From contig OW818657.1 in assembly GCA_942492905.1 (NCBI GenBank), forward strand, positions 6,157,511-6,221,510: a stretch of 64,000 nucleotides of DNA, in the 5' to 3' direction. Numbering within the stretch: position 1 is the first letter of the stretch; every line of letters begins with the position of its first letter. The translations under genes were made by a program, and so were the position numbers. The stretch is from an uncultured Verrucomicrobiota bacterium (lineage in GTDB: Bacteria > Verrucomicrobiota > Verrucomicrobiia > Verrucomicrobiales > V1-33). Below the pieces are notes generated by a model, which had not been told where the DNA came from, searched no databases, and worked only from the letters and a program-made list of their open reading frames with translations. This document shows, piece by piece, positions 12,144-40,667 of the stretch.

Positions 12144-12163
12144 CCCGCTGCGCAGCCCAAAAC

Positions 12164-12349
12164 GTAGCCCTCATCGCTCCGCGTGATGAGCAGAGCCGCA
12201 AGAGTGGCACGTTGAATCAAAGGGCGTTGGAGAACATTCCCCCCGCGCAAAAAATTGCCGCCACGAAACCACCGGGGTTGCTATTATAATTCGGAACTTG
12301 CGCAGGCAAGGGACGCTGAAGGCTCATCACGCGGAGCGATGATGGCTAC
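12164..12349. repeat. Inverted pair of GTAG-family REP-like palindromes (REPIN-like)
   Basis: GTAGCCCTCATCGCTCCGCGTGATGAGC (12164-12191) and its reverse complement with 1 mismatch (12322-12349). Confidence 0.75.
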
Positions 12350-18008: not shown

Positions 18009-18039
18009 GTGGTCGGGGCGGCCAGATTCGAACTGACGA
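18009..18039 (-). repeat. att core, duplicated 3' end of tRNA-Pro
   Basis: GTGGTCGGGGCGGCCAGATTCGAACTGACGA identical at 18009-18039 and 38577-38607. Confidence 0.95.
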
Positions 18040-18114
18040 TTTGATAAACCACGCTTCAACCCGTTGGTTTTCAGGGAAATACACGGCTGCGGTTTAGGGT
18101 GGACAAGGGCGGCA

Positions 18115-18134
18115 GTTCTTAGTAGAGTTCTTAG
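18115..18134 (+). promoter_or_regulatory. Putative integrase arm-type binding sites (left)
   Basis: GTTCTTAG x2 (18115-18122, 18127-18134), 12-bp period; matching pair at 38519-38538. Confidence 0.6.
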
Positions 18135-19259
18135 ATGGCCAGCCTTTGGAAACACCCGCAGAGCAAATACTTCACCGCCTGTTGGACCGATGCCAATGGC
18201 CGGCGCATGAAGCGCTCCACGAAAACGACTGACAAGAAGCTGGCGGATAAGCTGGCCAGGCAGTTCGAAGAGGAGAGCCGCGCCAAGCGCACCGCGAAGC
18301 AGGCCCGCCGAGTTCTGGCCGATATTTACCGCGACCTGTCCGGCGAGGAACTGCCCGCCGTGACGGTCCGGGAATACTTCACGGGCTACGTGGAGCGGAA
18401 GAGGCCGGAGGTTTCCCCTGCCACTCTCGATTACTACGCCGGCCACTCACGCCGGTTTCTGGCGTGGCTGGACAAGAAGGCTGACGCTGATATTTCCGAA
18501 ATCACCAAAACGGAAATCTCTGCCTATCGGAACCATGCCGCCACCAATGCCGGCCCCCGCACCACCAACAACACACTCAAGGCCGTTAAAACCTTCTTCG
18601 CTGCTGCCCGAAAAGATGGCTACCTGACCGATGACCCCGCCGCCGACGTGGACACCGTGCGCGACCGCAGCGAATCCACCCGCCGCCCCTTTACTCTGGA
18701 TGAGCTCCGCGCCCTTATGGCCGTGGCCACCGATGAATGGCGCTCCCTGATTCTCTTTGGACTCTACACCGGCCAACGCTTGGCAGACGTGGCCACCCTC
18801 ACATGGCAAAACCTCGACCTTGCCCGCGAGGAACTTCGCCTCACCACCCGGAAGACCGGTCGCCGCCAAGCCCTCCCCTTGGCTGCCCCGCTGCGGGCGC
18901 ACATCGACACCCTCCCCGCTGGCGACGATCCCAGCGCGGCACTCCACCCCACCGCCGCCGCCACCATTCAGCGCACCGGCCGCAGCGGCATTCTTTCCAA
19001 GTCCTTCGCGGAACTCCTTACCGCCGCCGGCTTGCGCAAAGCCACCGCCACCAAGGAAGAAGGGAACGCCCGCACCAAGCATGAGCTCTCCTTTCACTCC
19101 CTCCGCCATACGGCCACCAGCCTTCTGAAAAATGCAGGCATCCCGCAATCTGTCGTGATGGACTACATCGGCCACGACTCCGCCGACGTCAGCCACGGCT
19201 ACACCCACACCGGCCGCGAAGCCCTGGAGAAGGCCGCCGCCGCTTTTCCAACTCTGTAA
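18135..19259 (+). CDS. int: Tyrosine recombinase / integrase
   Basis: TGQRLAD (R), FHSLRH (HxxR), IGH, GYTH (Y); adjacent to att. Confidence 0.96.
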   Translation: MASLWKHPQSKYFTACWTDANGRRMKRSTKTTDKKLADKLARQFEEESRAKRTAKQARRVLADIYRDLSGEELPAVTVREYFTGYVERKRPEVSPATLDYYAGHSRRFLAWLDKKADADISEITKTEISAYRNHAATNAGPRTTNNTLKAVKTFFAAARKDGYLTDDPAADVDTVRDRSESTRRPFTLDELRALMAVATDEWRSLILFGLYTGQRLADVATLTWQNLDLAREELRLTTRKTGRRQALPLAAPLRAHIDTLPAGDDPSAALHPTAAATIQRTGRSGILSKSFAELLTAAGLRKATATKEEGNARTKHELSFHSLRHTATSLLKNAGIPQSVVMDYIGHDSADVSHGYTHTGREALEKAAAAFPTL

Positions 19260-19268
19260 ATTTCTGAC

Positions 19269-20102
19269 ATGGCCACCAAGAAGAAGCGCAAAACCCCTCC
19301 CACCGTGAAGCGCCTGCAAACGGCGATGGACCGACGAGCAAAAGACATGGGCTGGAGTGAACACGACCGAGCCGCCCGAAGGCGTATGGCGGCAGCCCTG
19401 AGGACCTGCCGGGCACACTATCGGAAGCATCTGCCGCACCATTGGCGATTCATGGTCCGTTCCGCCCGAATCCAGATCCTCCAAGCCGTAAGGGACTGCC
19501 GAACATTGGACGCCTTGCTCCTAGAGCGCAGCTTACCGCCGGTGATGATGGAGGCGTTCACGGAGTATAACCACTCTGGCGCCCTCGCGGGGATTGATTG
19601 CCGCGCCTACGCGGAACTTGCCGTCCTGACCCAAGGCAAAAGACCCTCCTCGAAGGTTTCCGCCTCAGGCGAGCCGAACAAGTTTACGTGGAAATTTACC
19701 TTGGAGCGAGTCCGGGAGGCCCTGAGGGATGGAAGGAGCGTAGAGTATGCCCTCGACCTCTACGCGGACACCATCCAATCCATGGCGCTAAGCGGACAAG
19801 CGGGGTTTTTTGAGGAGCTTGGGGATTTATTCCGCAAACACCGCAGCACCCCATTCAAACGCAGTCTGACAGATTGGATTGTCCGGGCATGGCTTCCGCT
19901 TTGCCTCTGGGAATGCAGCGCTGACGGCCACGAAGCCCACTCAAGATTCTGTCAAGCAGCGGACCTGCTGGAACTGAATTTCCCCGGGGCTGAGGATGCC
20001 GTATTCTACCATCAGTTTATCACGGCATGGAGGAACACGCGGAGCAAGAAAATGAATCCGAAAGCCAGGACTTTCGTAAAACCGAACGGCCAGCGGGATT
20101 AA
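19269..20102 (+). CDS. Hypothetical protein co-oriented with int
   Basis: 277-aa ORF starting 9 nt after int; basic N-terminus; no family recognised. Confidence 0.65.
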   Translation: MATKKKRKTPPTVKRLQTAMDRRAKDMGWSEHDRAARRRMAAALRTCRAHYRKHLPHHWRFMVRSARIQILQAVRDCRTLDALLLERSLPPVMMEAFTEYNHSGALAGIDCRAYAELAVLTQGKRPSSKVSASGEPNKFTWKFTLERVREALRDGRSVEYALDLYADTIQSMALSGQAGFFEELGDLFRKHRSTPFKRSLTDWIVRAWLPLCLWECSADGHEAHSRFCQAADLLELNFPGAEDAVFYHQFITAWRNTRSKKMNPKARTFVKPNGQRD

Positions 20103-20229
20103 TCCGGCCGGCCGGCCAACTGGATAAAGCCCACGAATGGCCAAGGGCGGAAGGCCGTGGATAGGGTGCTATCAACAGAGCGCAACCCACGACGGGGAGC
20201 GGCTGCCTACACCCAACCACCATATCCCG

Positions 20230-20466
20230 ATGATAAAGCCCGAAAAACAAGCCGCCCTCGCCGAGGCCAACACCGCAGGCACCACCCGCCAGCCCGTTGT
20301 GCCCGCCTTTCTCAAGGTCCCCGCCGCCGTCGCCTACTCCGGGATTGGCCGCAGCACCCTATACGAGCTCATGGGAGCGCGGAAAATCAAAAGCCACCGC
20401 ATCGGCGCCGCCCGTGTCATTGACCGGGCCAGTCTCGATGCCTTCATTTCCTCCCAGCCTTCCTAA
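20230..20466 (+). CDS. Excisionase/AlpA-like helix-turn-helix protein
   Basis: FLKVPAAVAYSGIGRSTLYELM...IKSHRIGAARVIDRASLDAFI. Confidence 0.85.
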   Translation: MIKPEKQAALAEANTAGTTRQPVVPAFLKVPAAVAYSGIGRSTLYELMGARKIKSHRIGAARVIDRASLDAFISSQPS

Positions 20467-20614
20467 ACCTTTGCCGCGCTTTGCGCCAAGGAGTCCCCGC
20501 CCGCTGCCTCTCGTAAAGGCAGCAGAGCGGGAGGGGCTGGCCCCGGGTTTCAACCCTTACAGCCTACCCGATTCCACGGTTTCCGCAAGCACGGCGCACC
20601 TTCAGATGCGTCCC

Positions 20615-20767
20615 ATGAAATCACCTTCCCACCAGACACACGAACACACCAAGGAGGGAGCCGTCTCCCCTCCGGTCCGCTGGATAACTCCCAGCGAAGG
20701 CACCGACCACGCCTCCCGCCGCAGGATGCCCTCATTTGCCATCATAGAAGGGAGGCAGCGCTTATGA
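20615..20767 (+). CDS. Possible small ORF coupled to the helicase gene
   Basis: 50 aa; stop overlaps the next ATG (ATGA). Confidence 0.3.
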   Translation: MKSPSHQTHEHTKEGAVSPPVRWITPSEGTDHASRRRMPSFAIIEGRQRL

Positions 20768-22179
20768 GTAGCCGCCTTCATCCTGCTGATCAGGAACACC
20801 CCGTTGAACGGAACGCCCTCAGTATCGCCCTACTGCATGGGCCGGCTATTCTGACGAGCCACGGTTTGCGGTATTTCCATTTCACGGGACAGCACGCCAC
20901 GCTTTTCCGCATCCTGGAGGTGGCCGCCGGGGAAACTCCCAGCGGCATTCCCGAAATGGTCCGCATTCAAGCCTTGGCATCGAATGAGCAGGATTCCGGT
21001 ATTCCGGCGGGTGAGGTTGGCCAAGCCTTGGCTTGTCTCACGGAGGGAACCGGGGAAGCCCACAATGCCTCATGGTATGCTGGTAAGATCATAGCCGGCT
21101 GGAAGAGGCGAGAAAGCTTGGCGCTCACCATCCGCTTGGAACAAATCCAGAACGGAGACGCGGAAGGCGACATCGGGCAACTCATCGCCAGGCTGGCCGA
21201 ATTGGCGCGCGACAGCTCCCCGGACCTCACCACAATCAATCTGGCAAACATCCGAGGATGTATGCTGACCGGGGAGCAACTCATGGCCCTGCACGTGCCC
21301 CAGCGCCCCCGCCTGCTGGACGATTGGCTTTGCCGTGGCGACCTGGGATTCATCTTCGCCCCCCGTGGCGTAGGTAAGACGTGGATTTCCATGGCACTCC
21401 CGCACGCCATCAGCGCCGGGGCACCCCTTGGGTTATGGTCCGCAGGGGAAGAGCGCTCCAGCGTGCTCTATCTTGACGGGGAAATGCCGCTCGAACTCAG
21501 CAAAGCCCGGCACACAGGACTGACGCTGGAAGGCGGGAACGTGGCCTATCTCCATCATGACGTGCTTTTTGAAAAACTCGGTCACACCCTTAACATTGCA
21601 GAGCCGGGCCACCAAGAGGCCATTACAGCATTACTCCTCAAGGAAGAACGGAACTTTCTGGTTCTGGACAACTTGAGCTGTCTGGCCTCCGGCGTGGATG
21701 AAAACAAAGGCCTCGCCTACGAACCGATTGCGGCCTGGTTGCTCGAACTCCGACGCCGGAAAATCACCACCATCATGGTCCACCATGCCGGCCGGGAAGG
21801 CTTCATGCGGGGCCACAGCAAGCGGGAGGATGCCGCCTCCTGGATCATCGAACTGCGGGACGCCAAGGACGAGGGGCAGCCGGGAGCGCGTTTTGTGAGT
21901 CATTTTGCCAAGCCTAGCCGGAACACCGGGCAGCACATGCCGGACCTGCTTTGGCACTTCACCACGGACGAAGCGGACGGCCGCACGGCCATCCATTGCG
22001 AACCCGCCGAGGAAAGTGAATACGAAGCCATGCTTCGCCATATCGCCGACGGCGTGGAAACTGTCACCGATCTTGCCGAAATAATGGGTAAAGGAAAAGG
22101 CACCATCAGCAAATGGGTGAAAAGGGGCGAAGCTACCGGCCGGCTCAAAAGGAGCGGAAACCGCATCCTCCCCGCCTGA
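20764..22179 (+). CDS. Replication protein: DnaB_N-like region + AAA_25/RecA-like helicase + C-terminal wHTH
   Basis: Walker A APRGVGKT, VLYLDGEM, Walker B LVLDNLS, HHAG...RGHS; C-terminal DLAEIMGKGKGTISKWVKR. Confidence 0.85.
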   Translation: MSSRLHPADQEHPVERNALSIALLHGPAILTSHGLRYFHFTGQHATLFRILEVAAGETPSGIPEMVRIQALASNEQDSGIPAGEVGQALACLTEGTGEAHNASWYAGKIIAGWKRRESLALTIRLEQIQNGDAEGDIGQLIARLAELARDSSPDLTTINLANIRGCMLTGEQLMALHVPQRPRLLDDWLCRGDLGFIFAPRGVGKTWISMALPHAISAGAPLGLWSAGEERSSVLYLDGEMPLELSKARHTGLTLEGGNVAYLHHDVLFEKLGHTLNIAEPGHQEAITALLLKEERNFLVLDNLSCLASGVDENKGLAYEPIAAWLLELRRRKITTIMVHHAGREGFMRGHSKREDAASWIIELRDAKDEGQPGARFVSHFAKPSRNTGQHMPDLLWHFTTDEADGRTAIHCEPAEESEYEAMLRHIADGVETVTDLAEIMGKGKGTISKWVKRGEATGRLKRSGNRILPA

Positions 22180-22189
22180 CTCAGAAGCA

Positions 22190-22303
22190 GTTTCCAAGTT
22201 TCCGGGCATATGGATGGAAACATGGAAACCCGTGCGAGCGGCGGAAACCGCAACTGGAAACCGTCTGGAAATAGTCTCGCATCCGTGGAAACTGAGTGGA
22301 AAC
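22190..22303. repeat. GGAAAC iteron array, putative replication origin
   Basis: GTTTCC at 22190 and 22198; GGAAAC at 22216, 22224, 22243, 22256, 22287, 22298; GGAAAT at 22267; AT-rich tract ~22350-22380. Confidence 0.7.
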
Positions 22304-22735
22304 TATGCGGAATCGGCCCGATATTTGAGGGATTCGAGGAATTCAGGCCAAGTTTTCAGTAATCTAGAAAAATCACAAACTGGCCGCTCCTGAACTGTAG
22401 CGAGCCCACTTGGTAAAGCGCTGGTTGAAGCAGCAGCCAGCCTTGGGCACCCCTCTCCTGATTGCCCATTCGCTGGCTCCCACCCGGATCAGGTGCTTGG
22501 TCTAGATCTGCAATGGAGGCAATCGATGTCCCGGTCGGTGCGCTGCCAGCCGCGCTGGCGGAGCGTTCCGTCAGCCCATTCACAGCTGAAACCGGCACGG
22601 GATGCGGTCACTCCCCGTGTGCCCCCCACTTAGGTTCCTTTGAAAGGCGGCATCAGCCGGATACCAAGCCCGGCCTTCTGAAAATTTGACTTACGGAACA
22701 ATCTGTGAAGCTGTTCTTCCAACGTCCAATCTCCC

Positions 22736-23236
22736 ATGACCACGTACCCATCTTCTACCGCCCTCCGCCGTTTGCTCGGCTGGACGATGATGCTGGCATA
22801 CCTGGCGGGAATTCAAGGTTGGGCGCCGATGGCATTTGGTGCCGTCGCAGCGTTGCAGCATGGGCATGAGGTCAGTCTGTCGCAGGAAAACGGCGACTGG
22901 CACCTTGTGTTGAGCCACCTGGATCATGAGGATTGCGATGCTGAAGAGGCCCCGCACGCGGAAGATCATCATGGCGCCGAACTCGCGGCTGCGGAAGATC
23001 ACCATCACGGCCCGGCCCACGTTTTTTGCTTCGCTTCTGAAAATTCCAATGCCTTGGGGGCTGCGGGACTCTCCGCGCCCAAGGTCAATTTTGAGGCGGG
23101 GTTGGTTGAAAAATGCGCACGTCCCGAATTCCGCATCTACCCGGTGCCGGTGTATCTGGATGGCGTGGCGGCACGCCCGCCGCCGGGCAAACCGGCGTGG
23201 CTGGTGTGTCTGAGGACAACCGTGCTCATCGTTTGA
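22736..23236 (+). CDS. His-rich exported protein preceding czcC (CzcI/DUF2946-like position)
   Basis: N-terminal TM; HLDHEDC...HAEDHHG...DHHHGPAH; ends LRTTVLIV. Confidence 0.7.
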   Translation: MTTYPSSTALRRLLGWTMMLAYLAGIQGWAPMAFGAVAALQHGHEVSLSQENGDWHLVLSHLDHEDCDAEEAPHAEDHHGAELAAAEDHHHGPAHVFCFASENSNALGAAGLSAPKVNFEAGLVEKCARPEFRIYPVPVYLDGVAARPPPGKPAWLVCLRTTVLIV

Positions 23237-23251
23237 GATAAAAGCCTGACC

Positions 23252-23299
23252 AACCCGTGATTCGCTCCCCCGTGGAGCCGCTTCGCGGGTTTTTCGTTT
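23252..23299 (+). terminator. Terminator-like hairpin between the His-rich ORF and czcC
   Basis: AACCCGTGA/TCGCGGGTT outer stem, GCTCC/GGAGC inner stem, then TTTTCGTTT. Confidence 0.5.
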
Positions 23300-23390
23300 G
23301 TGCGCGGCCCGCTGGCCGTGCGTTCCGGGCTGCGCTCTGCCCGCTTTGACCTCAACGCGCATCATTCTTTTTCCCAAAATCATTCCGCTC

Positions 23391-24728
23391 ATGAATCCCT
23401 TTCCAATAACCATAAGCTGCCGCGCTCCCCGCGTGGTGGCGATGGTGTTTTCCCTGTTGGCCTCCCCCGCTTTCGCGGACGTGGAGCCTCTCTACAAACT
23501 TCCCGCAGCTCCGAACCCATCCGGCACGGTGAGCCTGCGGCAGGCCATCGGTTTGGCCCTCTCCAATCATCCCTCCTTGGCCACGTTCACCCTGGACGTG
23601 CGGGTGGCCGAAGCCCGGATGATCCAAGCCGGGCTGAAACCCAATCCCCAACTCAATTTCACCTCGGAGAACCTCCCCGGCTCCGGTCCCTACAAGGACG
23701 GGGAACTGATGGAGAACACACTTCAATTGAGCCAACTCGTGGAGCTGGGCGGCAAACGTGATGCCCGCCTGCGTGAAGCTGAAGCCGGGCGCAGCGTGGC
23801 GGAGTGGGCCTGGCAGGTGCGGCGCATTGAGGTGCTGCGTGATACCGCACAGGCCTTCGTGGCGGTGCTGGCTTCCCAAAAGCAGGTGCAGCTCGCCGAA
23901 GAAACTGCCGGTCTGGCGGCAAAGGTTACTCCGATGACGCAAAAGCGGGTGGAGGCGGGTAAAGCCAACGCCGTGGAAGTCACCCGCAGCAATGTGGCGG
24001 TGGCATCCGCCAAGATTGAATTGGAGCAGGCCAAGCGCTCGTTGGCGTCGGCCCGCACCAATTTGGCGGCGCTCTGGGGGGCGCGGACGGCCAACTTTGA
24101 TAGTGTCACCGGCGACTTTGGCTCGGTGAAAACCATTCCGGTCTTTTCCACTCTGGTGGCGCAAATCAAGAGCCACCCTGAAATCACACGCTGGTCGGCG
24201 GAGCGCGCCCAACGCGAGGCTGTGCTGGCGCGGGAGTATACTCTGGCTAAAGCGGATGTCACCGTCTTCGGTGGGCCGCGCACTTTGGGGAAAGCGGAGG
24301 AAATCACCTTCACGCTGGGTTTTTCCATTCCGCTGCCGTTCAGGAACCGCAATCAGGGAGCCATCGCGGCAGCGGAGGTGGAAATCGCCAAAACCGACAC
24401 GGAGCGGCTGACTTCGGAGATGAGTGTCTTCACGCAGCTCAGCGCTGCCTATCAAGTATTGCAGCGGGCCGCGAATGAAGTCGAAATCCTGAACAAGGAC
24501 GTGCTACCCGGCGCAGCGGAAGCCGAAAAAGCGGTGACGGAAGGTTATGAAGCCGGCCGCTTCACCCAGCTCGAAATCCTCGATGCCCGCCGCACCCTGA
24601 TTCAAGCCCGCCACCAGCAACTCCGCGCCCTGTCCGATTATCATCAGGCCGTGGCTGAAATCGAAGCCCTCACCGCAGGTCCGGTCAATTTGTCAGCAGC
24701 CGGTGCCGCCTCCCCCTCTTCCAAGTAA
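23391..24728 (+). CDS. czcC: TolC-family outer membrane factor of heavy-metal RND efflux
   Basis: Signal peptide, QAGLKPNPQL, LSQLVELGGKRDAR, GYEAGRFTQLEILDARR. Confidence 0.9.
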   Translation: MNPFPITISCRAPRVVAMVFSLLASPAFADVEPLYKLPAAPNPSGTVSLRQAIGLALSNHPSLATFTLDVRVAEARMIQAGLKPNPQLNFTSENLPGSGPYKDGELMENTLQLSQLVELGGKRDARLREAEAGRSVAEWAWQVRRIEVLRDTAQAFVAVLASQKQVQLAEETAGLAAKVTPMTQKRVEAGKANAVEVTRSNVAVASAKIELEQAKRSLASARTNLAALWGARTANFDSVTGDFGSVKTIPVFSTLVAQIKSHPEITRWSAERAQREAVLAREYTLAKADVTVFGGPRTLGKAEEITFTLGFSIPLPFRNRNQGAIAAAEVEIAKTDTERLTSEMSVFTQLSAAYQVLQRAANEVEILNKDVLPGAAEAEKAVTEGYEAGRFTQLEILDARRTLIQARHQQLRALSDYHQAVAEIEALTAGPVNLSAAGAASPSSK

Positions 24729-24749
24729 CTACTTTTCCAAAATTTATCC

Positions 24750-26030
24750 ATGAACTTTAAAGCGATCATCAACGCAGGCATTATCGCCCTGCTTCTCATC
24801 GGCGGCGCACTGGCCGCCAAGCGAATCCTCGGCCTCGAATTCAACAGCCACGACCACGCGGATGGCCACGGCGCGGCTCCCGCGGCCGACGATCCCAGTA
24901 AGCGGCGCGGGCCGCATGGCGGGCGCTTTTTTGGCGAACCTGACTTCGAGTGCGAAGTGCAGATTTACGAGCCGGAAGGCGTCACCCCGGAGTTCCACGT
25001 TTACTTCTACAAGGACGGGAAGCCCTATGATCCCAAGGATGTGAAGACCGTGATCAAGCTGGAGCGGATCAACCGCACCGACACCATCAACTTCAAGCCG
25101 GAGGCGGATTACCTGATCGGCGACGGTCCCGTGGTGGAGCCGCATTCCTTCCACGCTTTCGTGACGGTGCAGCACGCCGGGAAAACCTATGATTGGAAAT
25201 TCGATTCGATCGAAGGCCGTGCCGAAATGCCGGAAGAAATCCTCGCCCGGGCGGGTGTGGAAATGATCAAGGCCGGTCCAGCAAAAATCCGCCAGAGTGT
25301 GAATCTGCGGGGGCGCGTGCGGGTGAATGAACAAACCCGCACCAGCATCATGCCGCGTTTTGATGGGCTGGTGAAGGAGATCAACAAGGAGCTGGGGGAC
25401 AGCGTTCAAAAAGGTGATGTGCTGGCCACCGTCGAAAGCAACGACAGCCTCCAGCCTTACCCGGTGAGGGCGGAAATCGCCGGCACGGTCATCGAGCGCG
25501 AAGTGAAGCTGGGAGAATTTGTCAGCAATCAGCGCCCCATGTTCGTCATTGCCGATCTGGGAAATGTCTGGGTGGACTTCATCGTTCACCGCAAGGACTT
25601 CCCGTTGCTGAAGCCTGACCAGTCCGTGACCATCAACCCCGGCGAAGGCATGGAGCCCATCGACGCCAAGCTGAGCTATCTCTCACCGTTCAGCGCGGAG
25701 GGGTCGCAAACCATGCTGGCCCGCGCCGTGGTGCCCAATGCCAAAGGTGATTTGCGCCCCGGCCTGTTTGTCTCGGGTGATGTGGTTTATGAGGAAGCCG
25801 ATGTGCCGGTGGCCGTGAAGGCCAGCGCCCTGCAAAACTTCCGCGACTGGGACGTGGTTTTTGTCCGGGTCGGCAATCTGTTTGAAGCCATGCCCTTCGA
25901 GATCGGCAGGCGGGATGCCGAGTGGATCGAGGTGAAGGAGGGCATCCCCGCCGGGATTTCCTACGCTGCCGAAAACAGCTTCATCATCAAAGCGGATGTA
26001 ATGAAAGGCGGAGCCACCCACGACCACTAA
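24750..26030 (+). CDS. czcB: RND periplasmic adaptor subunit
   Basis: His-containing N-terminal extension, GPHGGR, VIADLGNVWV, LRPGLFV, C-terminal HDH. Confidence 0.9.
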   Translation: MNFKAIINAGIIALLLIGGALAAKRILGLEFNSHDHADGHGAAPAADDPSKRRGPHGGRFFGEPDFECEVQIYEPEGVTPEFHVYFYKDGKPYDPKDVKTVIKLERINRTDTINFKPEADYLIGDGPVVEPHSFHAFVTVQHAGKTYDWKFDSIEGRAEMPEEILARAGVEMIKAGPAKIRQSVNLRGRVRVNEQTRTSIMPRFDGLVKEINKELGDSVQKGDVLATVESNDSLQPYPVRAEIAGTVIEREVKLGEFVSNQRPMFVIADLGNVWVDFIVHRKDFPLLKPDQSVTINPGEGMEPIDAKLSYLSPFSAEGSQTMLARAVVPNAKGDLRPGLFVSGDVVYEEADVPVAVKASALQNFRDWDVVFVRVGNLFEAMPFEIGRRDAEWIEVKEGIPAGISYAAENSFIIKADVMKGGATHDH

Positions 26031-29225
<3,195 letters not shown>

Positions 29226-29238
29226 TCCCCCAAATCCC

Positions 29239-30522: not shown

Positions 30523-30594
30523 CAAATACCTCCGGATTCTGCTTATTTCAAAAGCTTCAACGCGCCGCCTTTTTTATTCCCCCACTTTTTCCTG

Positions 30595-31818
30595 ATGAAC
30601 CCCGCAACCCATCCCTCCCTCTGGAAGCACCGCATCTTCCAACAGCTTTTTTGGGCACATGCGCTCAGCCTCACCGGCAGCGGGCTGACTTCGCTCGCTT
30701 TGGGCTTGCTGGCCCATGAGCTGGTCGGGGCATCCGCCTCCACCGTGCTGGGCTTCACGCTGATGATCCGCATCATCGTTATTGTGCTTTGCTCTCCCTG
30801 GGCTGGAAAACTCGCAGACCGTTTTGGAGCCCGGCAGGTCATGGTGTTCTCCGACATCCTGCGTGTGGTGGTGATGGTGGGGTTCTTCTTCGCCGATTCC
30901 GTCTGGCAAATCTACGCCTTGGCGGTTCTGCTGAATTTCGGGTCGGCTATCTTCACTCCGATTTACCGGGCAGTCATTCCGGGGGTGGTAACAAAAGAGC
31001 AGTATCCGAAAGCGCTGGCGGTCGGGTCCATCGCCTATGACACGGCAAATATTCTTGGCCCATCGCTGGCCGCGCTTGTCATCTCCCTTATCGGATTCCG
31101 GGGCAACTTCATCGCGGATGGCCTGACATTTTTAGGCAGTGCGGCCTTGCTGATCGGCCTGCCCCGTCTGGCCAGTGAAGTGGCAGGACAGGCAAAAAAA
31201 GCGCCCACTTCCGTGCGGCATGGGTTGACCGCAATGATCCGCCGCGCCCCGCTGCTCCAGTCTGTTCTGCTCGCCCTGCAAACCAGTATCGGCGGGGCTT
31301 TTGTCATCGTGGCGACCATCGATTTCGTGAAAAACGATCTCCGCCTCAGTGACTCCGCCTATGCCTGGGTGATGGCCGCATTCGGGATTGGCTCTGTGGC
31401 CGGGGCCATGATCTACGCCAGATGTTCGGTGCGCGTCAGGAATGGTTTGGTTACCGCTTCCGCGCCGGTCATGTTGGCGGGATTGATTGCCGTCGCTGTC
31501 TGGCCGCAATACGCCGCTTTGTGCTTGGCCTGGTGGTTCATCGGTGCGGGCTACAGCACCCTCGGCATCCGCGGCAGCGAATTGCTCGCCGCCAACAGTT
31601 CCGGGGAGGAACGGGCCCACATTTACGCCGCCCACTTCGCCCTGAGCCATGCTGGCTGGGGACTGACCTACCCCTTGGCCGGTTGGCTTACCTCAAACCA
31701 GGGCTTTGTGCCTACAGCCTGGATCTTCGCCGGGATTCTCCTGGTGATTTCATTGGGAGTTTGGAACCGCCAAAACAAGGTGAATCACGAAACTCCTCCG
31801 GCTCCGGACAAATCATAG
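30595..31818 (+). CDS. nreB: MFS transporter, NreB/NrsD-like nickel exporter
   Basis: LALGLLAHELVG..LG..L.I, AAHFALSHAGWGLTYPLAGWL match the NreB family; ~12 TMs. Confidence 0.75.
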   Translation: MNPATHPSLWKHRIFQQLFWAHALSLTGSGLTSLALGLLAHELVGASASTVLGFTLMIRIIVIVLCSPWAGKLADRFGARQVMVFSDILRVVVMVGFFFADSVWQIYALAVLLNFGSAIFTPIYRAVIPGVVTKEQYPKALAVGSIAYDTANILGPSLAALVISLIGFRGNFIADGLTFLGSAALLIGLPRLASEVAGQAKKAPTSVRHGLTAMIRRAPLLQSVLLALQTSIGGAFVIVATIDFVKNDLRLSDSAYAWVMAAFGIGSVAGAMIYARCSVRVRNGLVTASAPVMLAGLIAVAVWPQYAALCLAWWFIGAGYSTLGIRGSELLAANSSGEERAHIYAAHFALSHAGWGLTYPLAGWLTSNQGFVPTAWIFAGILLVISLGVWNRQNKVNHETPPAPDKS

Positions 31819-31879
31819 CCCCATCAACAATCCGAGGGGTGGTTTAAAAGACCGGAGCTCGGGAATATGCCCCGGAGAT

Positions 31880-32800
31880 TTATTTAGCAGGGGGCACTTT
31901 GCCCTGAGCTTCCAAGGTTGCTTTTAGGCTCGCGGCCAGCTGGGAGGCGGGGCCTTTCCCCCAGTAATGCAGGAAGAGATAGCGGGGCTGCTCATGGGTC
32001 ATGTGATGGTGAATGGCCACGATGTTGATGCCTTCTTTCCGCAGTGTTTTCAGCACTGGCTGGAGTTCGTCTTCCAGCACGCAGAAATCGCCACAGACCA
32101 CAGCATTGTCGTCGGTGCCGGCAAAGGCGGCCCAGGTGTTGACGCCCATTTCCTTGGCCATGTCGCACCCGCAGGGCATCTTTGCCGTGCGCCCGAACAC
32201 GGCTTTATACATGCCGTCCTTCACCTGTCCCTTCGCGCCCAGCATCTGATCGAGCGGGGCGGCGGTGATGGCGTTGCCGGTGGGGGCGAAGGCTTTGCCG
32301 AAAACCCGCTGCGGCTGCGGCTGGCCGGCGCGGACCGACTTCACCGCATCCAGGGCGGCCCGGACGGCCGTGGCCAGCTTCACGGTCCCGCCTTCTCCTC
32401 CGATGTGCATGAAGTAGACCTTGGGATCATCCGCGAAGAAGTGGTTATGCAGCGCGGTGACACTGAGTCCGCCATCAAGCGCGGCGGACATGGCAGCATT
32501 CACCTCGTCCTCGAAGAGCACGAAGTCACCGGCAACCATCACCTCAGCCTTCACTCCAGGGGTGAAGGCGGCCCACGTGGTGAGGCCCATGAAGGGCGGC
32601 ATGGTCCAGCCATCCACGGCGATTTTGACATCCGTGCGCGGGCTGGTGATTTTGAACACGGCCTCGGCTTCGTTCACGGTGCCTTTCAAGCCGGTGAGGG
32701 ATTCGATTTGAGCGCTATCCAAGGCGGAGGAAGCCACGGACGCACTGAGGGCGAAGACGACGGCAGCAACAATTTGGCGGATCATAAGGTGGGCATTCAA
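31880..32800 (-). CDS. DUF1259 (LppY/LpqO-like) tandem-domain exported protein
   Basis: Two repeats: GDFVLFEDEVN...VTALHNHF...YFMHI and GDFCVLEDELQ...IVAIHHHM...LFLHY. Confidence 0.85.
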   Translation of the reverse strand: MNAHLMIRQIVAAVVFALSASVASSALDSAQIESLTGLKGTVNEAEAVFKITSPRTDVKIAVDGWTMPPFMGLTTWAAFTPGVKAEVMVAGDFVLFEDEVNAAMSAALDGGLSVTALHNHFFADDPKVYFMHIGGEGGTVKLATAVRAALDAVKSVRAGQPQPQRVFGKAFAPTGNAITAAPLDQMLGAKGQVKDGMYKAVFGRTAKMPCGCDMAKEMGVNTWAAFAGTDDNAVVCGDFCVLEDELQPVLKTLRKEGINIVAIHHHMTHEQPRYLFLHYWGKGPASQLAASLKATLEAQGKVPPAK

Positions 32801-32865
32801 CCTTCTGGAAGCAGGGGCTGCAAGATTTAATTGAAATACCTGTTTCCCGTGACTACAGGAATGGA

Positions 32866-33783
32866 ATGCCGCTTCCTTCCTGGCTCATTCTGCTTTACAC
32901 GCTGCCAGCCTCTCAAGCGGCGGCGCGGCTCAGCTTTTGGCGGCAATTGAAGCGGCTGGGGGCCGTTGCCCTGAAAACTTCAGCCTATGTGCTGCCGCAA
33001 CGCCCGGAACAGGAGGAATCCCTGCAATGGCTGGCCCAGCAAATCCGGCAACAGGGCGGCGAAGCGACCCTGCTGCGGGCGGCACAGGTGGATACGCTGT
33101 CCGTCAATGAAGTGACAGACCTGTTTCAGTCTGCCAGAACCGCCGACTACGAGGAACTGCTGGCCGCCGCGGCTGCTCTCAAACCTCCCGGCGTCCGCCA
33201 GCCAGTGGAACCGGCGGAGGTGGAGCGGCTGAAAAAGCGGTTCCTCGCCATCAGGAAGATCGACTTCTTTGATTGTCCCGCCGCCGGCAAGGTGCGGCAG
33301 GCGCTGGAAGCACTGGCTCCGGCCAAGCCTTCCGTTAAGAAAAGCGGTCTGGTCAGGGTAGCCAACTATCAAGGCCGCACCTGGCAGACCCGGCCCCGCC
33401 CGGAATTGGACCGCATCGCCTCCGCCTGGTTGATCCGCCGCTTCGTTGACAAGGCCGCCGTCTTTGTCTTTGCGGCGGAGCGGACGCCTGACCGGGCGGG
33501 CGTGACCTTCGACATGGTGGATGCCGATTTCGGGCATGAAGGGGACGACTGCACGTTTGAGACCCTGGTGCGGCGGTTTTCGCTGAAGGCCCCGGGCCTG
33601 CCGGAGGTGGCGGAAATCGTCCACGCCGCCGACATTGAGGACGGTAAGTTTCCCCGCACGGAAGGTTCCGGCTTGCTGTGCGTGCTGCGGGGCTGGGCCC
33701 GGCAGGGCCTCGCCGATGAGGAGATCCTGCGGCGCGGCCTGGATCTCATGGACGGCCTCCACCTTTCCCTGACCGCCCCTTGA
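32866..33783 (+). CDS. chrB: Chromate resistance regulator ChrB
   Basis: WLILLYTLP..ARLSFWRQLKRLGA; WQTRPRPELDRIASAWLIRRFVD; FGHEGDDCTFE. Confidence 0.9.
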   Translation: MPLPSWLILLYTLPASQAAARLSFWRQLKRLGAVALKTSAYVLPQRPEQEESLQWLAQQIRQQGGEATLLRAAQVDTLSVNEVTDLFQSARTADYEELLAAAAALKPPGVRQPVEPAEVERLKKRFLAIRKIDFFDCPAAGKVRQALEALAPAKPSVKKSGLVRVANYQGRTWQTRPRPELDRIASAWLIRRFVDKAAVFVFAAERTPDRAGVTFDMVDADFGHEGDDCTFETLVRRFSLKAPGLPEVAEIVHAADIEDGKFPRTEGSGLLCVLRGWARQGLADEEILRRGLDLMDGLHLSLTAP

Positions 33784-33789
33784 TTTCCC

Positions 33790-35130
33790 ATGGACCCGCA
33801 GCCCGACCCCTCCTCCCGCCGCCCTGACTTTCCTTCGTTGAGGGAGGCGGTGCGTTATTGGTTCACCCTCGGTTGGATCAGCTTCGGCGGACCGGCGGGG
33901 CAGATCGCCATCATGCACAAGGAACTGGTGGAGAAGCGGCGGTGGATTTCCGAAAGTCATTTCATGCACGCGCTGAATTTCTGCATGTTGCTGCCGGGGC
34001 CGGAGGCGCAGCAACTGGCCACCTACCTCGGCTGGCGGATGCACGGCTGGCGGGGCGGGGTGGCGGCGGGGGCTTTGTTTGTGCTGCCCTCGGTATTCAT
34101 CCTCTTTGCCCTGAGCTGGCTCTACATGGCGGGCGGTCATCTGCCGTGGCTCGCGGCGATCTTTTATGGGCTGCTGCCTGCGGTGATCGCCGTGGTGGCG
34201 GAAGCCGTCCTCCGGATTGGCAAAAAGGCGCTGAAAAGCCCCGCCCTGTGGACGCTGGCGGCGTTGTCGTTTGTCGCCATATATCGTTACCAGGTCTCCT
34301 TCGTCTTCATTATCCTGGCAGCGGCGCTGACCGGCTGGATCGGCCACCGGCTGGCGCCCGGGCAGTTCCCCGCTGGAAAAGGCCACGGAGACAAGTCCGG
34401 GAATGATGACAGGGACTATCTGGCATTGCCGCCTTCCCCGCGCAGCACCTGGAAGCGCTCCGCCGGTGTCATCACACTGTGTCTTTTGTTATGGTGGACG
34501 CCCATTCTGGCCTTGGGGGCCTGGCTGGGCTGGCAGAGCACGGGGTTTGCCCAGGGCGTGTTTTTCAGCAAGGCGGCGCTGGTCACCTTTGGCGGAGCCT
34601 ATGCCGTGCTCCCTTACGTGGCCCAGCAGGCGGTGGAGAAATACGGCTGGCTGTCCCATCCGCAGATGATGAGCGGCCTGGGCCTGGCGGAAACCACGCC
34701 GGGACCGCTCATCATGGTGCTGCAATTTGTCGGGTTTGTCGGCGGCTGGCAGTTCCCCGGCTCCCTCAGTCCGCTGGCGGGGGCCACCGTGGGGGCGCTG
34801 ATTACCACTTGGGCGACCTTCATCCCGTGCTTCCTCTTTGTGTTCCTCGGCGCTCCCCAGGTGGAGCGTCTGCGGGAGCAGCCCCGGCTGGGTGCCGCGC
34901 TGACAGCGATCACTGCCGCCGTGGTGGGAGTGATTCTGAACCTCGGGGTCAAATTCGCGGAACATGCTCTTTGGCCGTCCCCGTTTTTGAAATTCGATTG
35001 GTTCGTGGCGTCGGTGGCTTTGGCGGCATTTGTCGCCATGCAGAAGTTCAAAATCGGATTGATGCCAACCATCGGCGCGTGTGCCGTTTTAGGGTTGGTG
35101 TGGCGATTCTATGGCGCCTCTCCTTATTGA
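33790..35130 (+). CDS. chrA: Chromate efflux transporter ChrA (long-chain), island copy
   Basis: SFGGPAGQIA, LPGPEAQQ, TFGGAY, ETTPGPLI. Confidence 0.95.
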   Translation: MDPQPDPSSRRPDFPSLREAVRYWFTLGWISFGGPAGQIAIMHKELVEKRRWISESHFMHALNFCMLLPGPEAQQLATYLGWRMHGWRGGVAAGALFVLPSVFILFALSWLYMAGGHLPWLAAIFYGLLPAVIAVVAEAVLRIGKKALKSPALWTLAALSFVAIYRYQVSFVFIILAAALTGWIGHRLAPGQFPAGKGHGDKSGNDDRDYLALPPSPRSTWKRSAGVITLCLLLWWTPILALGAWLGWQSTGFAQGVFFSKAALVTFGGAYAVLPYVAQQAVEKYGWLSHPQMMSGLGLAETTPGPLIMVLQFVGFVGGWQFPGSLSPLAGATVGALITTWATFIPCFLFVFLGAPQVERLREQPRLGAALTAITAAVVGVILNLGVKFAEHALWPSPFLKFDWFVASVALAAFVAMQKFKIGLMPTIGACAVLGLVWRFYGASPY

Positions 35131-35271
35131 TTCCTTGGTGGGGCAGGTTGTCCAATGTGATTCACCTTAGGGCGCCTCAGCAGCTGGAGGGGGGTGACTC
35201 TTGGGAAGATAGGCCGGTGGCTTATTCTCCGCCGAGGAGATGCCCCCAAGCGCAGACCTTCAGGCTGCATG

Positions 35272-35642
35272 TCACCAAACGTCCACCAGCGCATCAGAAT
35301 CACGCGCCAGCTCTCTCCCTTCCGGCCAGACAAGTGCCACCGCCCACACGGCCGTCCGCGCCCGCATGAGATCCCCTGCGGCGCACTGGGCCAGTGCATG
35401 TGCCAAGTGAAATCGCCCGACAATATCCCGGTGCCGCGGCTTCAGTCGGACCAATTTGGCTGGCCAACTCAGTCCCCATTTCCCACCGCTCCCACCCTTG
35501 GCAGATCATGACTCGAACAGCACGCACCGCAGGCTTTCACCTGGTCGGGAAGAAGCAAGTTATCAAGAACTCCCCACGCATCCTCATAAAGCCCGAGGAA
35601 CGCCAGGCCCTCCGCTTCATCGATGAGCCGCGCTGCTGTCAT
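35272..35642 (-). pseudogene. TPR-like helical protein broken by two +1 frameshifts
   Basis: Three consecutive frames give MTAARLIDEAEGLAFLGLYEDAWGVLDNL / PAVRAVRVMICQGWERWEMGTELASQI / HRDIVGRFHLAHALAQCAAGD...VW*; length 371 = 3n+2. Confidence 0.6.
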
Positions 35643-35776
35643 GTTTCCACCGATATTGCTGCAGGAATCACACGTCCATGGCCCAGGCGACCGGGGCAAG
35701 GGAAATGCCCCCAACTCCAGCGAAGGACTGGTCATGCTAAACCGGGCATTTCCCGTGAATTGAGGTAACATGGGAC

Positions 35777-36358
35777 ATGCGCCCATCACTCCTCTGCCGG
35801 GAACGTCTGGAACGGATTCAGCGAATTCTTGAGCGAGCCGCCAGGGAACCAGTTACCGTCCGGGAATTCACCAGAACATACGGCGTTGGGAAAAGGGAAC
35901 TGGAGCAGGCCGCGGAGCTTGGCTGGGTAGAAATCATCATTATAAAGCCGCGCACCGGTCGCCCTTCGCCCGCCGTGAAACTCCGGGAACACAGCGAAAC
36001 CCAGTCAGCGAAACTCCCCCCTCCCCGTAGATTCATTGAGAAGTTGATTAGCTGCCGACACTTCAATTTTGCCTTGGCGTCCACCTGTAACGCCGTGAAG
36101 CGCGGCCACAGCTATTTCTTCCACACGCCGACCTACACGCAAGCCTACCTGAAGAGCTTCCCCAAGGCCCGGAAGCGCCATGCCGCCACCAGCAGCATGA
36201 GCCGGCTTTTGAAACACCCCGATGTAAAAGCCGCCCGCGCATGGTTCTATGCAAAAATAAATCAGGAAATCCCTCGCGAGGAATCCATGCCCCCAACCAG
36301 GCAAGCGATCCGCCGCCGCCTCTTTGAAGCTGGCAGCCGGTTTGCTTGGCGATGCTGA
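35777..36358 (+). CDS. Hypothetical DNA-binding protein (HTH-like N-terminus; TerS-like helical motif in the C-terminal half)
   Basis: TVREFTRTYGVGKRELEQAAELGWVEI; YTQAYLKSFP...AATSSMSRLLKHPDV. Confidence 0.6.
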   Translation: MRPSLLCRERLERIQRILERAAREPVTVREFTRTYGVGKRELEQAAELGWVEIIIIKPRTGRPSPAVKLREHSETQSAKLPPPRRFIEKLISCRHFNFALASTCNAVKRGHSYFFHTPTYTQAYLKSFPKARKRHAATSSMSRLLKHPDVKAARAWFYAKINQEIPREESMPPTRQAIRRRLFEAGSRFAWRC

Positions 36359-36432
36359 GAACCCCAAGAAGCAACCCGTGGGACTGTCGGGGTTTGTCGG
36401 GGTTTATTCCGTGGGAATTGAACCTTACCGAC

Positions 36433-36921
36433 TTACCTCCGGGAGGTTTTAGCGCCCGTGAGTTCAGCCAACAAACCGACGAGCCCCCCGGGAGCCTCGA
36501 CTTTTTCCGGCTCATACCAGCCGGCCATTTTGATCAGCTTTTCCACGGCATCCAGCTTCGAGGGCATCCGGCAACGGTAAGAGGTGCCCCACGTGCTGGT
36601 GGTCTCAGAGTACTCCTGGCAGAGCTCGTGCGATTCTTTGACCTCGCCGACGGGTGTTTGCATGATGGCCACCAAATAACGCGCAATCGTCTCCCGACGC
36701 ACCCCGAGACGGTTCTCCAAGACCTTCGCAAATTCCCCCCGCAGCTCCCGAACCCTCAGCATAACCTTGGCATCAGCCATCAGTCGCGAGGCATTCGACA
36801 TACAGGTTTCCGTGGTCGAACGTGACTCAGCGACGTGTTCGCGGTAGGCTTTGGCGGCAGAGGCCCCTTCAGCCACGGCTTCCGCAAAAGCCTCGTGTCT
36901 TGGATTGTCGAGAACTGGCAC
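36433..36921 (-). CDS. terS: Terminase small subunit
   Basis: GTG start MPVLDNPRHEAFAEAVAEGASAAKAYRE...NASRLMADAKVMLRVREL; C-terminal MPSKLDAVEKLIKMAGWY. Confidence 0.8.
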   Translation of the reverse strand: MPVLDNPRHEAFAEAVAEGASAAKAYREHVAESRSTTETCMSNASRLMADAKVMLRVRELRGEFAKVLENRLGVRRETIARYLVAIMQTPVGEVKESHELCQEYSETTSTWGTSYRCRMPSKLDAVEKLIKMAGWYEPEKVEAPGGLVGLLAELTGAKTSRR

Positions 36922-37130
36922 GAGGTCACGGTGGGTTACCAAATTCTAAATACTCAAGACGAATTCAGCGGCGGCCGGCCGGCTTTGCCCGTGTGGAACT
37001 TGCGCGGCAACCTTACTTCCATGAGTCCCGATTGATGGTAATCACCAGCCCGGGGTCTGTCGCCTCCCACACCAAGCGTACTTGATATTACTATTGTGCT
37101 GCCCTGAGATTTGCCACTAGTCTGATCAAA

Positions 37131-38051
37131 ATGGCATCTGAGTCCCCACTAAGTTTTCCAATGGATCTGAAACAACTGCAATCCTATTTAAAGATTGGCA
37201 AGCTGCTGATAAAGGTCATTAGTCCCCTAAAAGAGAAGATCACGCACGCGATACACTGGGAAACGACACGCCAAATGCACCATGGCTGTATCCATGCTAT
37301 ACGGCGATTCAGCACAGTTACCAGATCGCGTGGACCTGATCACTGGGACACCGAGCCAGTTACCGAAGGCATCAGAGAGTTGGCCTCCCATCTTCTTCAT
37401 GTTCCTAAGCAAAAGCTCCACGTTACTTTAAAGCTCATTGCACCAACAGGGGGCAACCCTGCCGACCTGACGGTTTCAACTTTAGGCCGGACAGGCGCCT
37501 CAAGCCGGCCAGAAGATGCCGGGGATTCTGCTTTGAACCGGGTGGGCAACAACTCGGACTTCGCTTCGCTTCTTGGCTGTTCAGATGGCGTCACGGACTG
37601 GAAACGTGCATACAACGTTTTTCACTGTCCCAATCTAGAGAAAAGGCAGAAATATTGCTGTAGCCGAACGAACTTTCTGGATTTTTACCGAACTAGTCTG
37701 GTTTTCCCCCTTCGTGTTGAAGTTTTGAATTCCAATCAAACCGAGACGTTCGGGTTTGTTACTATCGATTCCATGTCAGCGAATATCTTTTCTCTGCCCG
37801 ATATTTTTGATTTCGGCGGTGACAAGCTGGATGAATACGCTACAATCATCGACGCAAGTTGCTTGATTCACGCTATCGCCACAGTCGTAGACACACTGGC
37901 CATGATCATGCGATCCGGTTGGGGCGCCAACAAGACAGCCCACCCCCGAAAAGTTTCCCGCCCAGCACTACCAGCCAATCCAACACCCAATGTCACAACA
38001 AAACACATCAAGCAAAAGGCTCTCAGGCAACGCCGCACAGGGGGCGATTAA
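37131..38051 (+). CDS. Hypothetical lower-GC protein with a GAF-like domain
   Basis: NSDFASL...FHCPNL...FYRTSLVFPLRV...FGFVTIDS pattern resembles a GAF sheet. Confidence 0.65.
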   Translation: MASESPLSFPMDLKQLQSYLKIGKLLIKVISPLKEKITHAIHWETTRQMHHGCIHAIRRFSTVTRSRGPDHWDTEPVTEGIRELASHLLHVPKQKLHVTLKLIAPTGGNPADLTVSTLGRTGASSRPEDAGDSALNRVGNNSDFASLLGCSDGVTDWKRAYNVFHCPNLEKRQKYCCSRTNFLDFYRTSLVFPLRVEVLNSNQTETFGFVTIDSMSANIFSLPDIFDFGGDKLDEYATIIDASCLIHAIATVVDTLAMIMRSGWGANKTAHPRKVSRPALPANPTPNVTTKHIKQKALRQRRTGGD

Positions 38052-38176
38052 GCGAAGTACAGTCGCGTCGCCCGTGCCAATGAATATTATCAACTCGATG
38101 CAAAAGGCATACGGGACTACAAAGAGTAGCGCCAACGCCCCAGCAACAGAGCGACGATAAGTCCTCTGAAAAAACC

Positions 38177-38214
38177 AAAACCCGCCTTTTCCGCAGTGAT
38201 TTGGCGGGTTTTTT
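38177..38214. terminator. Terminator-like hairpin
   Basis: AAAACCCGCC-16 nt-GGCGGGTTTTTT. Confidence 0.5.
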
Positions 38215-38518
38215 GTGCCCAAATTTTCGGTTCCGGCCGTAGCTGAGGAGGATATGCCGGCTTGGTTGGTGGTGCCAACAGAGCCCCGCGGGCATGAAAA
38301 CCGGTGATTTATGGTAAAGCGCCCCTCATAAAACCCGAACCTTTCCGTCAGTCCAGCCCCATGAATTCCACCGGGCCGGGGCGCCGCCGTTTGATGCCAC
38401 CCCGGGAGACGGTGAACGTCTCTGGAAAGCGTATCAGAGTTCGCAAAGAGTTTTTAACGTACCACCATGCCAACGGAGGACAGAGGGCCTGCGGACGGCA
38501 GCGCACCAACCCAGACAT

Positions 38519-38538
38519 GTTCTTAGATTCGTTCTTGG
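38519..38538 (+). promoter_or_regulatory. Putative integrase arm-type binding sites (right)
   Basis: GTTCTTAG (38519-38526) and GTTCTTGG (38531-38538), 12-bp period. Confidence 0.6.
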
Positions 38539-38577
38539 CTCTCTCGGACCGAATTGATAATCCCTTGAAAATCAAGG

Positions 38578-38654
38578 TGGTCGGGGCGGCCAGATTCGAA
38601 CTGACGACTTCTTGCTCCCAAAGCAAGCGCTCTACCAAGCTGAGCTACGCCCCG
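38578..38654 (-). tRNA. tRNA-Pro(TGG), integration target
   Basis: CGGGGCGTAGCTCAGCTTGGTAGAGCGCTTGCTTTGGGAGCAAGAAGTCGTCAGTTCGAATCTGGCCGCCCCGACCA; 77 nt, encoded CCA. Confidence 0.98.
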
Positions 38655-40531: not shown

Positions 40532-40667
40532 GGAGGAAATGGTAGGAAAACGTCAAACCATGGCGGCGGCACCGGTAGGGAGCAACCGCCGGGAAGCCTG
40601 GGGATTCCGGTTGCGTTCCGGCACCCGTCCGGGAGTTTCAAGGCCCCATTTTCCGCCCTTCCGACTT

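Follow-up and report, generated by a model that had tools for sequence, protein, structure and literature searches.

Among known satellites, P4 carries a tyrosine integrase, integrates at a tRNA gene and relies on the cos site of its helper and on capsid-size redirection, not on a small terminase subunit (TerS). Phage-inducible chromosomal islands, or PICIs, are modelled in SatelliteFinder by five core components with at most 10 genes between them, with tail, holin, portal and head-tail connector components forbidden; SaPI-type PICIs without a capsid-morphogenesis gene (cpm), termed 'Type B', have been validated experimentally, and more than 99.9% of known PICIs are found in Proteobacteria and Firmicutes (PMC10085698). 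The phage-inducible chromosomal minimalist islands, or PICMIs, of Vibrionaceae integrate next to fis, have an Int/AlpA/Prim core without terS and undergo packaging as concatemers, with no remodelling of the capsid, and their dependence on a helper has been shown experimentally (PMC10803314). Virion-encapsidated integrative mobile elements (VEIMEs) from marine virus particles carry tyrosine integrases, AlpA and primase/helicases, some have a TerS closest to that of co-occurring phages, and some have been found integrated in Verrucomicrobia genomes, module 3 being the one linked to that group (PMC9618062). Here, we analyze a stretch of 64,000 nucleotides (the window) of contig OW818657.1 (assembly GCA_942492905.1) from an uncultured Verrucomicrobiota bacterium, in which a 20.6-kb element sits at a tRNA-Pro gene (18009-38607). 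Its sequence argues, with moderate confidence on our side, for an element of phage-satellite type, similar to PICIs and PICMIs, that integrates site-specifically, replicates autonomously and has captured a multi-metal cargo.

An earlier note on this DNA, made from the letters alone, had proposed such a PICI-like satellite and held that satellites are poorly described in Verrucomicrobiota. The sequence hallmarks of its satellite interpretation are all present, but terS does not belong to the backbone of the wider family. Because VEIMEs had already been reported from Verrucomicrobia, satellites in this phylum were anticipated and the novelty of the claim is lower, although they are still uncharacterised there.

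Boundaries and backbone of the element

The element is bounded by a 31-bp direct repeat, GTGGTCGGGGCGGCCAGATTCGAACTGACGA, which occurs in exactly two copies without a mismatch, at 18009-18039 (attL, a duplicated tRNA-Pro 3' end) and at 38577-38607 (attR, the 3' end of the intact gene). The integration target, tRNA-Pro(UGG), lies on the minus strand at 38578-38654 and is the sole tRNA that ARAGORN finds in the window. Allowing up to 3 mismatches, a 20-nucleotide (nt) core of the repeat matches these two sites only (0 in 100 shuffles); hence the repeat is beyond chance and lacks a third, degenerate copy inside the element. The island is flanked by chromosomal housekeeping genes (DUF937, MTHFR, an esterase, a xylose-isomerase-like protein, hisG and xseA), and taxonomy searches with homologues together with the MTHFR comparison support the Verrucomicrobiota host that had been thought probable. 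From the two ends we predict an attP junction of …AAAATCAAG + att + TTTGATAAACC… and an empty attB of …GGACTGGAA + tRNA-Pro 3' end.

The backbone starts with an intact tyrosine integrase of 374 amino acids (aa; 18135-19259, plus strand; PF00589, E 3e-17; phrog_1, E 9e-48), in whose translation the catalytic residues R..HxxR..H..Y are present as TGQR, HSLRH, IGH and YTH. It is followed by ORF277 (19269-20102, plus strand; ORF, open reading frame), a conserved backbone protein without a family match that is syntenic after int in four relatives (L012, L014, L015 and L325); none of its 15 homologues has a Pfam or PDB match, even with a 13-sequence family profile. Next comes an AlpA/excisionase-type helix-turn-helix (HTH) protein of the HTH_17 family (20137-20466, plus strand; PF12728, E 2e-8; phrog_66, excisionase/regulator), whose true start is probably a Met near 20230, giving a protein of ~78 aa (70-92 aa in relatives).

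The replication module consists of a Rep helicase of 471 aa (20764-22179, plus strand), an AAA_25/DnaB-like ATPase (PF13481, E 3e-17; phrog_906 and phrog_19) with a C-terminal winged HTH, in which HTH_29 spans residues 423-466, and of a putative replication origin directly 3' of the helicase gene (22154-22312). No primase domain was found in the element. The putative origin holds ~10 (T)GGAAAC iterons, part of them at 11-bp spacing and with one inverted pair, and 6 of the 21 TGGAAAC sites of the window fall within the 114 bp of 22190-22303. A repeat array occupies the same position 3' of the helicase gene in nearly every related locus (40+ relatives), and its heptamer switches by helicase clade: TGGAAAC in the closest relatives, GGCAACC, ATGTTGC, CGTTTCC or CGTTTAC in others, and TGGGACA in an alphaproteobacterial outgroup. 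This clade-wise co-variation is strong comparative evidence that Rep and the iterons form a cognate initiator-origin pair.

Annotation of the genes gives the order that the earlier note had read along the sequence (int, ORF, xis-like HTH, helicase, iterons, cargo, terS), within an element of the ~20.6 kb and between the exact repeats that it had described. It had also listed what is missing, and the scans agree: Pfam and PHROG find no capsid, tail, lysis, holin or head-tail connector gene in the element ORFs and no relaxase, type IV coupling protein (T4CP), mating-pair formation (MPF) or type IV secretion system (T4SS) gene in the backbone ORFs, and tblastn with large terminase subunit (TerL) and portal queries finds neither in the window. 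In contrast to a prophage, the element thus has no virion, lysis or large-terminase genes or remnants of them.

Set against the PICI model, the integrase, the AlpA-type regulator and terS are present and the forbidden components are absent. The primase-replicase is represented by the helicase/initiator with its iterons, without a primase domain, no cpm gene is found among the element ORFs (PHROG and Pfam), and ~10-11 ORFs separate rep from terS where the model allows 10. The element resembles PICIs and SaPIs in its end-located site-specific integrase, its AlpA-type regulator, the replicase-helicase with iterons directly 3' of it, the position of terS near the far end followed by accessory genes, and the absence of tail, holin, portal and TerL genes; with four of the five core functions, if the helicase/initiator is counted as the primase-replicase, it would match 'Type B'. 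This likeness is one of gene content, with no demonstrated homology to PICI core families. Unlike PICIs, the element has a host outside Proteobacteria and Firmicutes, lacks separate primase, capsid-morphogenesis, ppi and rpp genes, and has ~11 cargo genes between rep and a terS that is inverted and unconserved in its family.

Other described systems are matched in part. With VEIMEs, here compared by description, the element shares an integrative habit, a tyrosine integrase, AlpA, a helicase, a TerS and a Verrucomicrobia host, but VEIMEs are defined by recovery from virions whereas this element is known from its genes. With P4-like satellites it shares a tyrosine integrase at a tRNA, AlpA and a single large replication protein that ends in an origin-binding domain; it differs in lacking psu, delta, sid and epsilon, in its helicase family and in having int distal to the tRNA.

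The orphan TerS and the right end

Sequence and structure-model evidence identify the ORF at 36433-36942 (minus strand) as an orphan TerS, which bears out the reading of 36433-36921 in the earlier note. It matches phrog_51 ('terminase small subunit') with E 2.6e-13, and a profile of its 27-sequence family matches the solved Pam5 small terminase with E 1e-13 in a PDB profile search. In the AlphaFold (AF2) model (pLDDT 84.6), an HTH at the N-terminus is accompanied by long helices and a beta-hairpin, and nearly all of the named BFVD matches of this model are 'terminase small subunit'. Other searches gave less: Pfam Terminase_2 scores 17 bits, which is sub-threshold, and Foldseek of the model against PDB returns a best E of ~1, with the NV1 small terminase at rank 8 only. 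The public gene call (P0003) has 115 aa only and misses the N-terminal HTH; homologues place the start at about 36921 (GTG) or 36942 (TTG), and the GTG at 36921, giving 162 aa, is the likely one.

The context of the homologues points the same way. Proteins with 41-56% identity are found in podovirus-like contigs in the order TerS, small ORF, TerL (526-537 aa, phrog_2), T7-type portal and capsid, and TerL is next door in 87 of the 106 TerS family loci with enough downstream sequence. Next to the TerS homologues in L001, L003 and L005, the TerL is of the phrog_26724/phrog_2 type. Searches against cultured phages gave zero TerS matches. The closest relatives of the TerS, L070 (1061-2894; 64%) and L071 (825-1845; 72%), each adjoin a second, divergent terS-like ORF, which suggests that some uncultured phages carry tandem TerS paralogs.

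The TerS of the window is full length, with a dN/dS of 0.23 relative to its nearest relative. Over the C-terminal half (residues 96-165), identity is 64-70% to closest relatives and to TerL-adjacent phage TerS alike, whereas that to the phage group falls to 38-53% in the HTH and 24-39% in the linker. This is the pattern expected if the protein still fitted a phage TerL but read other DNA, although ordinary mosaicism among phage TerS could produce it as well.

Between the cargo and terS lies ORF193 (35777-36358, plus strand), a conserved protein of two domains that is predicted to bind DNA; the N-terminal domain is a winged HTH and the C-terminal one a TerS-like HTH. Its residues 84-158 align with the N-terminal HTH of TerS at 94.8% probability and E 5e-8 in hhalign (36-sequence alignment), and 7 of the 36 family members match phrog_51 directly, which is suggestive only of a relationship between the two HTH domains. 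The AlphaFold (AF2) model (pLDDT 93.5) shows a winged HTH and a helical domain. ORF193 is kept in the subclade L012-L015, in which no other conserved backbone gene lies between it and the tRNA. As a side observation, 35480-35642, upstream of ORF193 and overlapping a small minus-strand ORF that starts MTAARLIDEAEGL, is 74% identical at nt level to L010:16382-16542, inside the L010 element near its tRNA end.

On the other side of terS, divergent from it across a 190-bp intergenic region, is ORF306 (37131-38051, plus strand), which lies in a patch of 50% G+C compared with ~60% elsewhere and for which Pfam, PHROGs and PADLOC give no match and more than 400 fetched loci no homologue. The terS/ORF306 segment as a whole has a G+C of 0.50-0.58, and terS runs opposite to the backbone. 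Both features, together with the place of ORF193 as the last backbone gene in the small relatives L012-L014, would fit a composite site, in which a small int-AlpA-Rep element ends at ORF193 and a separate phage or satellite remnant (terS and ORF306) follows in tandem at tRNA-Pro, its inner att decayed and its terS functionally foreign. We consider this quite improbable: the att search described above finds no third copy, the terS gene is intact and subject to purifying selection, fragments of other phage genes such as TerL or portal are missing from the vicinity, and the segment lies within the sole att pair and would excise with the element whatever its origin.

Relatives in Verrucomicrobiota and the weighing of alternatives

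Helicase homologues are mainly found in Verrucomicrobia (485 detectable, for example in Prosthecobacter and Brevifollis). A single-sequence helicase scan of genome contigs gave zero loci, whereas an alignment-based scan yielded 47 helicase-family loci from species-representative genomes, each taken with 10-kb flanks. Seven relatives are delimited by 24-50-bp direct repeats of tRNA 3' ends (Arg-tct, Leu-taa, Arg-ccg, Ala-cgc and Gly-ccc) at sizes of 5.9, 6.3, 6.4, 10.0, 10.2, 10.9 and 12.3 kb, all below the 20.6 kb of the window element, and int is distal to the tRNA in all seven as it is here. Among 86 ORFs surveyed in eight elements, int and the AAA_25 helicase are present in 8/8 and HTH regulators are likewise shared, whereas accessory genes differ (a HigB toxin, a kinase, an FGE-sulfatase and others). 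Cultured phages lack the Rep family (zero helicase matches), and plasmids nearly lack it (one trivial partial match). The helicase relatives in IMG/VR (L234-L244) showed no TerS, TerL, portal or ORF193.

The smallest members (5.9-6.4 kb) resemble PICMIs in consisting of int, an AlpA-like HTH protein, one replication protein and few other genes, and concatemer packaging is also the mode proposed for the window element. In contrast to PICMIs, the latter sits in tRNA-Pro and carries terS, an AAA_25/DnaB-like replication protein, ORF277 and ORF193, and helper dependence is known for PICMIs whereas this element is known from genes alone.

Two relatives are of particular use. The 10.9-kb element L055:7047-17990 at tRNA-Ala, on Chthoniobacterales metagenome-assembled genome contig DATDBU010000191.1, encodes a prohead maturation protease (11877-12875; phrog_133, E 1e-81) and a 998-aa polyvalent protein with tape-measure (TMP_3), LPD3 and ADP-ribosyltransferase domains, and has no capsid, portal or terminase gene. 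The protease is the second isolated virion-related gene in the family. The locus L325 (GCA_947461315.1, CANHLJ010000052.1; 7290-12251) lies in a sister genome with flanks of ~90% nt identity at the MTHFR-flanked site. It has an identical attL and an int-ORF277-HTH block of 83.6% nt identity, but past the HTH gene it carries a different replication module that includes a DnaG zinc-ribbon ORF; hence one attB is used by mosaic variants, which indicates module swapping. The integrase nearest to that of the window among the genome loci is in L011 (70% identity), where copies of a tRNA-Pro-like att core at 1477-1511 and 13454-13505 are inverted, not direct, and an intact tRNA is lacking; this could reflect an inversion, tandem elements, or a misassembly or other assembly or rearrangement artefact.

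The earlier note had named relatives that are decayed prophages or that carry conjugation genes as a finding that would speak against a satellite. What was found instead is a set of compact, att-bounded elements, and Pfam/PHROG scans of the 86 ORFs in eight relatives contain no conjugation genes. A decayed prophage was therefore rejected, given the absence of virion gene remnants and the compactness of the relatives. An integrative and conjugative or mobilizable element (ICE/IME) with a relaxase was rejected as well, as neither the backbone ORFs nor the relatives have a relaxase or T4SS match.

An immobilised relic, either a decayed prophage or a fixed island that no longer excises, is very improbable in our view. 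It is compatible with the lack of direct evidence for excision and with the empty site not being found, but it sits badly with the perfect 31-bp repeats, the intact int, the complete Rep and TerS frames, the sister genome, in which another variant occupies this attB, the relatives at five other tRNA genes with perfect repeats, and the absence of virion gene remnants.

Several results weigh against the satellite reading. A family hidden Markov model finds terS in 0/47 of the related genome loci, taken with their 10-kb flanks. The PICI backbone with its own TerS, as put forward in the earlier note, therefore fits this single element and not the family, and terS appears from these comparisons to be an acquired module, not a family core gene. 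Given that terS is absent from relatives, on the opposite strand and beside a low-G+C patch, this gene could be a passenger of recent arrival instead of a functioning hijack module. In L070 the terS pair is followed by TerL, and the L070 and L071 contexts indicate that this TerS subtype also occurs in phage-like settings. A BFVD fold search with the ORF193 model gives no significant TerS match, which leaves profile-profile and PHROG evidence for its TerS-likeness. The element yielded no capsid-remodelling, ppi or rpp gene, and no helper prophage lies within the 64-kb window. A search for the exact attP junction in IMG/VR gave zero matches, and no comparator for an empty attB was found through MTHFR neighbours, the genomes nearest by MTHFR (90-73% amino-acid identity) being non-syntenic there with the tRNA not nearby. 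As neither a helper phage nor a circular form, an empty attB or a copy in viromes was found, satellite behaviour is something that we infer.

An alternative is a generic integrative and replicative island that does not use phage particles and moves by conjugative hitching through an unrecognised origin of transfer (oriT; iOriT/IME-like), by transformation or in vesicles. Its terS would be a captured passenger that might serve, for instance, as a decoy against phages by disturbing the packaging of those that infect the cell. Besides being unconserved in the family, terS is inverted and placed in the accessory zone by the att site, a frequent location of defence genes in islands. Many relaxase-less islands carry only an oriT (bioRxiv 10.64898/2026.01.13.699239), and the SatelliteFinder authors caution that elements with just int, AlpA and a primase/replicase ('Type C') may belong to other kinds of mobile element (PMC10085698). 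However, no relaxase, T4CP or MPF gene is present here or in eight delimited relatives, an isolated virion-related gene is seen in each of two family members (TerS in this one, the prohead protease in L055), ORF193 has a TerS-like HTH, the phage-like C-terminal half of TerS is under purifying selection, and PADLOC on the ORFs without assigned function gave no defence match. Overall, we regard such an island as rather unlikely, and continue with the satellite reading.

In the cycle that we propose for a phage satellite, the tyrosine integrase and the AlpA-type HTH protein, as excision/activation factor, would excise the 20.6-kb element from the tRNA-Pro 3' end, and the AAA_25 helicase would bind its cognate GGAAAC iterons through the C-terminal winged HTH and amplify the circle. 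The element TerS, with its phage-like C-terminal half and diverged DNA-binding N-terminus, would then recruit the TerL of an infecting or resident podovirus-like helper, which might also induce the element. Headful packaging would place about two copies of the element in each ~40-kb capsid for delivery to new cells, where integration would confer Co/Zn/Cd-type and chromate efflux. The contigs with homologous phage TerS measure ~38-45 kb, so two 20.6-kb copies would fill such a head.

Cargo and possible routes of metal resistance

The multi-metal cargo proposed in the earlier note is present, but at ~12.4 kb (22736-35130) it is somewhat shorter than the ~13 kb given there, and it is mosaic in makeup. 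All of its genes are on the plus strand. It opens, directly upstream of czcC, with a small His-rich ORF of 166 aa (22736-23236) that has EDHHHG-type motifs and no family match and whose product may bind metal or play a regulatory part in the efflux operon. The czcC-czcB-czcA-type heavy-metal resistance-nodulation-division (RND) efflux operon (23298-29225) encodes an IhpA/IhpB-like outer-membrane protein and adaptor and a CusA/CzcA-family pump (1596 bits). It is followed by a full-length hisD paralog (histidinol dehydrogenase; 29239-30522; TIGR00069, 449 bits), a major facilitator superfamily (MFS) transporter of the EntS/H+-antiporter-like type (30595-31818), ORF287 (31967-32830), which has no match in Pfam, NCBIfam, PADLOC or any locus, and the chrB regulator with the chrA chromate efflux transporter (32866-35130; ChrB_N/ChrB_C; Chromate_transp, E 2e-78; TIGR00937). 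The predicted pump substrates (Co/Zn/Cd and chromate) follow from the family names.

Close DNA relatives in other Verrucomicrobiales exist for the czcCBA part only: 23607-29219 is 77-79% identical at nt level to L245 and L246 (Verrucomicrobiales), where the operon stands without the island backbone and without the hisD, MFS and chr genes. Judged from these comparisons, the cargo is a locally captured mosaic inserted between the origin and ORF193, and its insertion brings the element to about twice the size of the largest delimited relative.

The chromosomal hisG (40461-41552) is only ~2 kb past the right end of the island, and hisD and the MFS gene sit between czc and chr; a link of histidine metabolism or export to metal tolerance is speculative. 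Also beyond the island, a 2259-aa ORF spans 48929-55708 of the window.

The most valuable new points are the co-variation of Rep and iterons, the status of terS as acquired and not core, the virion gene in L055 and the TerS-like HTH of ORF193. A wider picture, which we put forward tentatively as one possibility, is a so far undescribed, Verrucomicrobiota-wide family of minimalist satellites built from int, an ORF277-like protein, AlpA and Rep with clade-specific iterons, with or without ORF193. In such a family, single virion genes that match a helper (a full TerS here, the prohead protease in L055 and, in one subclade, ORF193 as a DNA binder derived from a TerS HTH) would act as interchangeable hijack modules, and the member described here would move its 12-kb cargo in capsids at about two copies per head.

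With dozens of small elements, matched Rep-iteron pairs and different tRNA genes, the family is a comparative system that could show which single phage-derived genes suffice to hijack a helper. If the element is helper-packaged, phage satellites can carry large metal-resistance operons, beyond virulence, defence and antibiotic-resistance genes, and do so in an environmental phylum without experimentally studied satellites. This would offer a possible route by which Co/Zn/Cd and chromate efflux could pass between Verrucomicrobia of fresh water and soil with neither plasmids nor conjugation involved.

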